Part shown: piece by piece, positions 6,050 through 6,802 of the stretch
Layout: each line of letters starts with the position of its first letter
How positions within the stretch are numbered: position 1 is the stretch's first letter
Translations under genes and position numbers: made by a program
Notes under the pieces: model-generated
Told to the model about the DNA's origin: nothing
What the model saw: only the letters and a program-made list of their open reading frames with translations
Databases searched by the model: none
Source of the DNA: Escherichia phage Eeyore
Strand: one strand, 5' to 3'
DNA: 45,057 nucleotides
Sequence record: PP925821.1

Positions 6050-6802
6050 TTATATTTCAAATGCCATTTGAGGCATGAAACGATCACGATCTGCGTCGTA
6101 CTGCAATGAGCTGGCACTGTTGTATGCCTCTATGCGCTCAACCAGAACCGCTGCTCGTGTTTCTTTGCTTGCAGGCGCGTAGGCTGATTTATCCCATGCC
6201 TTGTCGATGCCAATATTGCGCGCCACGTTTGTACTGTCAGCTGACGACAGCGGGATGTGACGGAATATATCGGCGTTAAGCATGCGCAGGCCATGAAGCT
6301 TTGTTATGGGGTAACCATTATTGTCGACAACATGCCGTATAAGATCTCGCAATTTTGCCCTGCATGAGCGTGGACGTTTCGCGTCGTATTCACCCATGCT
6401 ACCGATGCATACCCTGGGGAATTCATGGCATAAGCGGATGAAACGCTCGTCAGGCTCGTTGAAGTGGTAAACTGGCGCGCCGACAACCTTACCGTGCGGC
6501 CATTCAGCTATTAACGCATCATTCTCTTCACTGGTCCCGCCGATCACGTCAGGGATAACAGCAAAAGCAAAGCGCGGGTGATTCAACCAGCGGCCCACAA
6601 ACTCGTAGTAATCATTCCAGTTAACAACGCGCTTTTTTGTCCAGAAGCTGAATGCGCCGTTATCCAGCGCAAAAGACTGGGTGACTTCGCTTGCAAGAGC
6701 TAATTGACCTGGATTAGCGAAGGAAATAAAAGCGTGCCTGCCTTTCCACGCCTTCAGTGCGCATGTATCAGGGGTTATTGGCCCGCCGTGAAAATGTATC
6801 AT
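6050..6802 (-). CDS. Conserved early-region protein; possible divergent transglycosylase (TGT/DpdA-like), unverified
   Basis: 250 aa from ATG 6802 (SD GGAGG; ATGA overlap with upstream stop). ALDNGAFS and CIGSMGEYD loosely resemble TGT motifs DSGGFQ and LMGVGKP. The track start at 6859 would overlap the upstream gene by 60 nt. Confidence 0.5.
   Translation of the reverse strand: MIHFHGGPITPDTCALKAWKGRHAFISFANPGQLALASEVTQSFALDNGAFSFWTKKRVVNWNDYYEFVGRWLNHPRFAFAVIPDVIGGTSEENDALIAEWPHGKVVGAPVYHFNEPDERFIRLCHEFPRVCIGSMGEYDAKRPRSCRAKLRDLIRHVVDNNGYPITKLHGLRMLNADIFRHIPLSSADSTNVARNIGIDKAWDKSAYAPASKETRAAVLVERIEAYNSASSLQYDADRDRFMPQMAFEI

Follow-up and report, generated by a model that had tools for sequence, protein, structure and literature searches.

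The window analysed here is a 45,057-nucleotide stretch of DNA from Escherichia phage Eeyore (sequence record PP925821.1), and the gene in question lies on its minus strand at 6050-6802, in the early-left region. A first-pass annotation, made from the sequence and its open reading frames (ORFs), had proposed that the 250-amino-acid product is a DNA base-exchange enzyme derived from the tRNA-guanine transglycosylases (TGTs) and the phage DpdA proteins related to them. The follow-up described here supports that proposal, through a PHROG family shared with the DpdA of phage CAjan, a strong profile-to-profile match, the pattern of residue conservation, and a close orthologue already listed as a DpdA. 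With a probability of roughly 0.7, the gene encodes a stand-alone phage DpdA, that is, a minimal DNA-guanine transglycosylase with the TGT-type (beta/alpha)8-barrel fold, belonging to the DpdA-only group 3 of Hutinet 2019. The family itself is already known: the clade was catalogued in 2019, GenBank and PHROGs contain annotated orthologues, and this very protein sequence is public. The gene adds no new kind of system.

Family membership is first of all indicated by comparisons with annotated and validated phage proteins. The protein matches phrog_887 ('queuine tRNA-ribosyltransferase') of PHROGs over its whole length with an E-value of 8.7e-94, and the same PHROG takes in CAjan DpdA (E 8.2e-96), gp032 of Salmonella phage 7-11 and gp29 of HK106. 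A direct BLASTP comparison with CAjan DpdA gives an E-value of 4e-6 and places LDNGAFS on LDSGAFS, IGSMG on IGGMVG and SSADST on YSCDSS. When a profile of 56 subfamily sequences, built without CAjan, was compared by hhalign with a profile of 16 CAjan-type DpdA1 sequences, the two matched over 171 columns with 98.8% probability (E 7.8e-17). Closer relatives are found in SfI (gp34, YP_009147480, 84% identity) and SPN3UB (67%), and more distant ones in MED16 (36%, E 4e-44), HK106 (gp29, 36%) and 7-11 (34%, E 5e-36). Supplementary Data 1 of Hutinet 2019 (PMC6884629) lists the proteins of SfI (YP_009147480), SPN3UB (YP_007011024) and HK106 (YP_007151699), together with those of 7-11, SEN1 and BTP1, as DpdA in phages with no precursor genes. 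The function of the CAjan enzyme is well anchored, in that CAjan DNA carries 2'-deoxy-7-cyano-7-deazaguanosine (dPreQ0) at about 32% of its guanines and the delta-dpdA mutant carries none (PMC6884629).

The predicted structure points in the same direction. A first model, with a predicted local distance difference test score (pLDDT) of 76, retrieved from the Protein Data Bank (PDB) by Foldseek only generic TIM barrels with E-values above 1e-3. An AlphaFold2 (AF2) model rebuilt from a more diverse alignment reached a pLDDT of 94.1 and a predicted template-modelling score (pTM) of 0.90, and consists of eight beta-strands alternating with helices, the TGT-type (beta/alpha)8 barrel to be looked for in a phage DpdA. 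With this model, the TGT family is set cleanly apart from other barrels in the PDB. The matches to TGT-family structures also extend over the greatest lengths (200-223 residues); PdxJ, the first barrel from outside the family, scores 13.1, and QTRT2 stands at rank 9. Although the margin is modest, the order of the ranking is what a TGT-family barrel would be predicted to give.

The residues that the family conserves would appear to form an active site on this barrel. Two alignments were used, of 45 and of 56 diverse members with 30-90% identity. D47, H170, D189 and S190 are invariant in both, and conservation is at least 90% at P84, D85, H113 and G134, reaching 98% for H113 in the 56-sequence subfamily alignment. 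In the model, these positions are found at the C-terminal ends of successive strands or just beyond them (D47 at beta3, D85 at beta4, H113 at beta5, G134 at beta6, H170 at beta7 and D189 at beta8), which would put them on the catalytic face of the TIM barrel. The spacings between them are 38/28/20/37/19 residues, compared with 42/27/20/35/19 in CAjan DpdA.

Two characterised enzymes provide schemes with which this arrangement can be compared. In Salmonella DpdA, D95 (after beta3) is the general acid/base, D256 (after beta8) is the nucleophile, and D130 and H181 recognise the base; replacement of either catalytic Asp by Ala abolishes guanine exchange (PMC10164549). In Cap10, D73/S74, D122 and K154 read the base, and H226/D248 form the catalytic pair (bioRxiv 10.1101/2025.04.06.647259). 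Considering that the order and spacing in the Eeyore protein match these schemes, and nearly match that of CAjan DpdA, we infer that D47 is the acid/base, D189 the nucleophile and H170 its partner, with D85 and H113 as base readers. By this analogy, D47 and D189 would correspond to D95 and D256 of Salmonella DpdA.

All of the motifs concerned are read from the minus strand. LDNGAFS (residues 46-52, 6647-6667) ends beta3; it contains the candidate general acid/base D47 (6662-6664), which aligns with D63 of CAjan LDSGAFS, and F51, a candidate base-stacking or gate residue in a D-x-x-x-F arrangement that recalls the DSGGF of TGT. The segment IPDV (residues 83-86, 6545-6556) lies just past beta4 and supplies D85 (6548-6550), the candidate base-recognition Asp. 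At the end of beta5, H113 in PVYHF (6464-6466) aligns with CAjan H132 and is the candidate counterpart of Salmonella DpdA His181, of His196 in 9g DpdA and of the base-recognition Gln of TGT. IGSMGEYD (residues 133-140, 6383-6406) ends beta6 and aligns with CAjan IGGMVG; it would be a glycine-rich segment of the substrate pocket. KLHGLRM (residues 168-174, 6281-6301), on beta7, carries the candidate nucleophile partner H170 (6293-6295), which aligns with CAjan H187, and L172, a candidate base-stacking residue. Finally, SADST (residues 187-191, 6230-6244), on beta8, holds the candidate nucleophile D189 (6236-6238), which aligns with D206 in CAjan SCDSS. Both aspartates to be expected of a phage DpdA, one after beta3 in a D-x-G-x-F motif and a nucleophile after beta8, are therefore found in D47 and D189. 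The 19 residues from H170 to D189 compare with 22 in Cap10 (H226/D248) and in Escherichia coli TGT (Y242-D264).

The first-pass annotation had drawn attention to two of these segments, likening LDNGAFS loosely to the DSGGFQ of TGT and IGSMGEYD to its LMGVGKP. Both segments are present, and the likeness is not due to chance, because D47 is invariant, G134 is at least 90% conserved, and both segments align with the corresponding ones of CAjan. The mapping of LDNGAFS stands, but judging from strand order and spacing, the mapping of IGSMGEYD is probably one beta-strand off: IGSMGE on beta6 probably corresponds to the GGLAVGE of TGT, and the (Y)LMGVG of TGT, on beta7, to KLHGLRM. It had also been noticed that the protein lacks a zinc site. 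Indeed, Cys conservation exceeds 46% in no alignment column, and a CxCxxC...H motif is missing. This absence is nothing peculiar, since the validated CAjan DpdA also has no zinc motif.

The gene is clearly kept by strong purifying selection, to judge from the comparison with the 94%-identical orthologue of Klebsiella phage KO-TP1. The ratio of nonsynonymous to synonymous substitution rates (dN/dS) is 0.04-0.07 by three methods, with 84% nucleotide identity, 61% identity at third positions and all candidate active-site residues retained. Synonymous sites are saturated in the comparison with SfI.

The reading frame itself is well defined. It runs from an ATG at 6802-6800 to a TAA at 6052-6050 (6053-6802 without the stop codon) and starts with MIHFHGGPIT; the plus-strand frame of 6050-6802 contains many stops. 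The ATG is preferred because it overlaps the TGA (6801-6799) of the upstream gene for a DksA-type zinc-finger protein, because homologues are 248-252 amino acids long, and because the family N-terminus MIH(F/Y)HG begins exactly there. On the same grounds, a GTG start at 6859, which would give 269 amino acids, was rejected. The start region reads GGAGG-ATGA (6799-6807), with the Shine-Dalgarno-like GGAGG at 6807-6803 touching the ATG. Given the overlap with the upstream stop codon and the abutting GGAGG, we infer that the gene is translationally coupled to its upstream neighbour within the early-left operon.

A DNA-guanine transglycosylase needs a base to insert, and the first-pass annotation had stated that no genes for the synthesis of 7-cyano-7-deazaguanine (preQ0) accompany the gene. 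This was borne out: tblastn with the CAjan FolE, QueD, QueC, QueE and YhhQ-like proteins and E. coli QueA gave chance-level matches only in the whole window, and among about 40 window ORFs scanned for family matches, with the early region taken in full, there was no preQ0-pathway gene (for most late ORFs of the part from 23.5 to 45 kb, tblastn was the only probe). With no pathway of its own, as the phages of Hutinet groups 1 and 2 have, Eeyore falls into the DpdA-only group 3, and the precursors must come from the host. Such dependence is plausible by analogy with other phages. Hosts of DpdA-only phages carry the full queuosine pathway (PMC6884629), and the phage DpdA2 enzymes of VH7D and nt-1, when produced on their own in E. 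coli, put host-made preQ0 or 7-aminomethyl-7-deazaguanine (preQ1) into DNA, an activity abolished in a delta-queD strain (PMC10516641).

From these elements a course of events can be proposed. After induction or infection, the gene would be transcribed with the early-left operon, at an early stage of the lytic cycle, and translated in coupling with the gene upstream. The enzyme would flip a target guanine out of double-stranded phage DNA; D189, placed by H170, would attack C1' and D47 would protonate the departing guanine, leaving a covalent enzyme-DNA intermediate. D47 would then deprotonate N9 of a host-made 7-deazaguanine base, and this base would resolve the covalent intermediate, completing a double displacement. 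The incoming base would be preQ0 or a close derivative from the host FolE/QueD/QueE/QueC pathway. The biological pay-off, the weakest step in the scheme, would presumably be escape from some DNA-targeting defence, next to the three methyltransferases. Whatever in this scheme goes past family, fold, conservation, selection and the absence of precursor genes is modelled on the characterised enzymes.

How much modification might such an enzyme produce? The DNA of 7-11 holds dADG (2'-deoxy-7-amido-7-deazaguanosine) at 50 per 10^6 nucleotides, or about 0.02% of G (PMC6884629), and that of Pantoea phage MED16 at 354 per 10^6 nucleotides, or about 0.13% of G (PMC8306585). By simple arithmetic, these published densities amount to some 9 modified sites in the genome of 7-11 and some 33 in that of MED16. 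Because they are so low, the marks in Eeyore DNA would be expected to be sparse and probably sequence-specific, not a bulk replacement of guanine.

Several observations weigh against the assignment of the Eeyore protein to the DNA-modifying DpdAs, the first set of which concerns the lack of a direct tie to TGT or to bacterial DpdA. Scanned with Pfam, NCBIfam and PADLOC, the protein matched no family at E-values up to 10; phmmer and two profile searches of all PDB sequences gave chance matches only; and the family profile, when aligned by hhalign with E. coli TGT as a single sequence, reached a probability of 0.7%. The equivalence of D85 with CAjan D105 is approximate, the two being offset by two residues in the hhalign alignment. 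The only members of the group with liquid chromatography-mass spectrometry (LC-MS) data, 7-11 and MED16, are virulent or unrelated phages, and their proteins are just 34-36% identical to that of Eeyore. To our knowledge, neither 7-11 nor MED16 has an enzyme known to make dADG. The DpdA-only phages so tested carry very little modification, and it is dADG rather than preQ0 (PMC6884629, PMC8306585); Mycobacteriophage Orion, also DpdA-only, had none (PMC6884629). Moreover, MED16 DNA was cut by the tested restriction enzymes despite the guanines in their sites (PMC8306585).

The silence of Pfam and PADLOC should not be counted as evidence against family membership, because the validated CAjan DpdA likewise has no Pfam match and scores only marginally (E 0.0013) with the PADLOC DpdA model. 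Neither CAjan DpdA nor 7-11 gp032 nor HK106 gp29 matches Pfam TGT, to which E. coli TGT itself scores 2.8e-168, and 0 of the 120 listed relatives of CAjan DpdA carry a Pfam TGT annotation. Semi-global pairwise alignment with E. coli TGT is no better than with shuffled sequences (z about 0) and does not co-align the catalytic Asp residues, so that a residue register to TGT is not obtainable from sequence. For the DpdA of MED16, HHpred gave 99.2% to the TGT of T. maritima.

These same comparisons bear on whether the protein might instead act on tRNA, remodelling the queuosine or preQ status of host or phage tRNAs during infection. Orthologues are labelled 'queuine tRNA-ribosyltransferase' in GenBank and PHROGs, and the fold and the catalytic-type residues are common to TGT. 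That label, however, is inherited from remote homology and also covers CAjan DpdA, a proven DNA enzyme. The Eeyore protein matches no Pfam TGT model and has no detectable sequence similarity to E. coli TGT; at 250 amino acids, compared with 375, it is without the C-terminal zinc subdomain of TGT; and no tRNA is encoded in the window. A tRNA substrate therefore seems to have only a very slight chance of being the right one.

Of what the first-pass annotation had suggested, the least supported is that base exchange, alongside three methylases, would make up a layered anti-restriction arsenal. The three methylase genes are there (see below), but the relatives lend no support to the arsenal, with dADG at no more than 0.02% and 0.13% of G and no protection in MED16. 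The enzymes that cut MED16 DNA included ones with GA or GGC in their sites, motifs modified by CAjan DpdA, and the authors concluded that dADG has minimal effect (PMC8306585). Furthermore, 7-deazaguanine DNA is itself targeted by modification-dependent nucleases such as GrwAB (PMC12137116). Perhaps the singleton DpdA clade does not serve bulk anti-restriction at all, and uses a host precursor and a Cap10-like His-Asp pair to place a few site-specific 7-deazaguanine marks to some other end, about 10-30 of them in a genome, as with the dADG of 7-11 and MED16. The phage might, for instance, label its own DNA for packaging or replication, escape a single defence, or disturb immunity that relies on deazaguanines, such as the type IV cyclic-oligonucleotide-based antiphage signalling system (CBASS), Qat or Dpd. 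We consider this refinement tentative and unlikely. In one variant of it, the enzyme would take 7-amido-7-deazaguanine (ADG) or 7-carboxy-7-deazaguanine (CDG) directly in place of preQ0, which would explain dADG without a known preQ0 hydratase.

The same scarcity of modified bases, together with the lack of restriction protection in MED16 and of any modification in Orion, could also be taken to mean that the protein acts on DNA in some other way: as a base-removing glycosylase, by inserting another base, or in a non-catalytic role with modification too sparse to matter. Singleton DpdAs do cluster apart, and Hutinet 2019 suggested that they might have diverged in function. Against this stand the strong purifying selection (dN/dS about 0.05), the strict conservation of catalytic-type residues in 56 diverse sequences from a family of 1743 representatives, and the conservation also of the positions for base recognition, on which an enzyme that simply excises a base would depend less. 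In addition, no other origin of the dADG is known in 7-11 and MED16. Such a departure from base exchange with 7-deazaguanines would seem decidedly improbable.

If the protein is indeed a base-exchanging DpdA, its nearest counterparts are the singleton DpdAs of gamma-proteobacterial phages, SfI gp34, SPN3UB gp54, HK106 gp29, 7-11 gp032 and MED16 gp38, members of the same family with about 230-265 amino acids, no zinc site and no phage preQ0 genes (PMC6884629, PMC8306585). All of these belong to PHROG 887 and retain D47, D85, H113, H170 and D189, and in the temperate relatives the gene likewise lies in an early operon. There is no substantive difference between them and the Eeyore protein; what differs is the mosaic slot, which here lies between the genes for a DksA-type zinc finger and an Rv2179c-like exonuclease.

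The likeness to CAjan DpdA (DpdA1) is more distant. The two proteins are homologous, agree in motif order and spacing, and share the lack of a zinc motif and of a Pfam TGT match, but identity is only about 20-23%, and the CAjan protein, at 306 amino acids, has N- and C-terminal extensions. In CAjan a folE-queD-queC-queE-yhhQ cluster surrounds dpdA, whereas the Eeyore window encodes none of these genes, and CAjan modifies a third of its guanines, whereas the tested singleton-DpdA phages modify at most 0.13%. The DpdA of Salmonella Montevideo (PDB 7UI4; PMC10164549) is larger still, at 413 amino acids, with a 128-residue Ins8 and a structural Zn2+ site that are both absent from the 250-residue phage protein. 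This bacterial enzyme requires the ATPase DpdB and belongs to a host defence, not to a phage; neither dpdB nor dpdC-K was found among the window ORFs scanned, and the PADLOC DpdA model misses the phage protein. Bacterial and archaeosine TGTs (Pfam PF01702) act on tRNA and carry a zinc subdomain, whereas the phage protein has neither that subdomain nor detectable sequence similarity to them.

Cap10 of type IV CBASS (PDB 9NTN; bioRxiv 10.1101/2025.04.06.647259) shares 9% identity with the Eeyore protein and binds a protein N-terminus bearing N-terminal 7-amido-7-deazaguanine (NDG). Its His-Asp pair raises the question of whether the phage protein might be a Cap10-like enzyme with a substrate other than DNA, handling a protein- or small-molecule-bound 7-deazaguanine, for instance in counter-defence against the NDG-modified cGAS/DncV-like nucleotidyltransferase (CD-NTase) of type IV CBASS or against QueC-family systems, QatABCD among them. 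The same pair, however, occurs in CAjan DpdA (H187/D206), a proven DNA modifier, and the relatives 7-11 and MED16 do carry 7-deazaguanine in their DNA. Cap10 works with the QueC-like Cap9 and a CD-NTase, and tblastn, family scans and the neighbourhoods of relatives revealed no gene for either in the scanned window or beside the relatives. The sequence likeness also points to DpdA1, and no PADLOC defence model was matched. We regard a substrate other than DNA as highly improbable.

If stand-alone DpdAs are active, then many temperate phages of clinically important bacteria would mark their DNA from the host's pool of queuosine precursors. This would affect their sensitivity to restriction and to type IV modification-dependent systems, as well as base-calling and modification-calling of prophage DNA and the choice of hosts for phage growth. 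The question posed by the group as a whole is why DpdA-only phages contain only trace dADG and what they gain from it; Eeyore would be a convenient temperate, E. coli-compatible model with which to approach it.

The window is a lambdoid-type temperate phage genome, and its early-left region is 95-97% identical to that of Escherichia phage Flotzy. The leftward operon encodes, in order, a CI-like repressor, a YfdP-like protein, a DUF2303 protein, an HD-domain dNMP phosphatase, ORFs of 65 and 167 amino acids, the DksA-type zinc finger, the DpdA-like protein, the Rv2179c-like exonuclease, Xis and Int. The dpdA-like gene thus sits in a tightly packed operon between the repressor region and xis/int. 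Its upstream neighbour (6799-7026, minus) encodes a 75-amino-acid DksA/TraR-type C4 zinc-finger protein (Pfam PF01258, E 7.8e-12), and its downstream neighbour (5465-6037, minus), which begins 12 nucleotides past the dpdA-like stop codon, a 190-amino-acid Rv2179c-like 3'-5' exonuclease (Pfam PF16473, E 6.5e-73; PHROG 255). The HD-domain deoxyribonucleoside 5'-monophosphate phosphatase (YfdR/YfbR-like; 7708-8247, minus) belongs to the same early operon. Exonuclease and phosphatase alike have nucleic acids or nucleotides as substrates, and in at least 24 contigs their genes accompany the dpdA-like gene. Flotzy, however, has both of them and no dpdA-like gene, so that a functional link is not indicated by this distribution.

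Comparison with Flotzy identifies the dpdA-like gene as a mosaic cassette swapped at gene boundaries, because 6037-6832 (blastn boundaries) is the only early-left stretch without homology to Flotzy and because Flotzy has other ORFs at this place. The Flotzy slot (locus L001, 3019-3956), between flanks that are 95-97% identical, contains three small hypothetical ORFs of 73, 157 and 70 amino acids, unrelated to the Eeyore gene. At least 24 public contigs encode the identical protein, in every case within this block, with differing integrases and immunity regions; its NCBI entry is named 'hypothetical protein' and assigned to the Enterobacter cloacae complex. A megablast search of 5,426 complete E. 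coli genomes gave one match, at 76% identity, and the allele is therefore rare in E. coli.

Orthologues are found at a variety of positions: after exo/bet/gam in SfI and KO-TP1, after replication genes in SPN3UB, beside xis/int in HK106, and after Ead/Ea22 in a Salmonella prophage. An obligate partner gene was considered and rejected, the neighbourhoods differing among all of these and the Eeyore window. Directly after the 94% orthologue of KO-TP1 come a PD-(D/E)XK protein gene and two DNA methyltransferase genes; a DNA methyltransferase gene of 663 bp (locus L015, 4260-4922) lies about 0.5 kb downstream. Such company, like the three methyltransferase genes of the Eeyore window, counts in favour of the DpdA assignment. 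In some prophages, then, dpdA-like and methyltransferase genes travel together.

The family as a whole is very common: 6127 clusters were found at 90% identity, with 1743 representatives at 50%, mostly from prophages of Enterobacterales, Vibrio, Aeromonas and Shewanella, and most of its public records are named 'hypothetical'. In the 90% cluster that includes the Eeyore protein, many members named 'MT-A70 family methyltransferase' (219-222 amino acids, from Salmonella and Citrobacter) proved unrelated in sequence (BLASTP E 33); they are probably a clustering artefact of gene calls fused with an adjacent methyltransferase gene, such as that of KO-TP1. There are also long members of 397-424 amino acids: P0008 has a 165-amino-acid N-terminal extension, which may be read-through from the upstream gene, and P0168 and P0188 have low-complexity C-terminal tails of 150-180 amino acids. 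These extensions could be gene-call artefacts or true fusions.

The three methylase genes that the first-pass annotation had pointed out all lie on the plus strand. At 13150-14484 is a Dam-type N6-adenine DNA methyltransferase of 444 amino acids (Pfam PF05869, E 1.9e-43; Dam domain at residues 19-199), at 14423-16414 a 663-amino-acid protein with a C5-cytosine DNA methyltransferase domain (Pfam PF00145, E 4e-20; best match at residues 24-140), and at 20317-21369 an N6/N4 DNA methyltransferase of 350 amino acids (Pfam PF01555, E 5.9e-44). The first two ORFs are unusually long and overlap by 62 nucleotides. The extra 245-500 residues outside their methylase domains could be target-recognition or fused accessory domains.

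The left end of the window (1-2768) looks, from its gene content, like an invertible host-range switch of the Mu G-segment type. A Hin/Gin-type serine DNA invertase (2214-2768; Resolvase and HTH_7 domains) adjoins three ORFs in opposite orientations, namely a phage-tail C-terminal-domain ORF (1346-2083, minus) and two endosialidase-chaperone (Peptidase_S74) ORFs (1-687, plus; 684-1337, minus). When 1-4100 was scanned for inverted repeats, no crossover-site repeats of at least 20 nucleotides were seen on the flanks of the segment; its second arm may be situated at the opposite end of the window, beside the tail-fibre gene at 43619-44905.

On the minus strand of 3800-3890, about 150 nucleotides from the 3' end of the integrase gene (4021-5214), lies the sequence CATGGGGTGTCGGGGGTCGGAGGTTCAAATCCTCTCGTGCCGACCA, followed by a stem-loop and a T-run that form a terminator. 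It resembles the 3' 46 nucleotides of a tRNA-Pro(GGG) gene such as E. coli proL, from the anticodon loop to CCA. ARAGORN found no complete tRNA in the window, and Rfam gave nothing significant. The element is probably the core of attP, which would imply integration into a tRNA-Pro gene. Because phage DNA continues on both sides of the tRNA-like sequence, the window has the look of a phage genome that is free or circularly permuted, and not of a prophage with host flanks.

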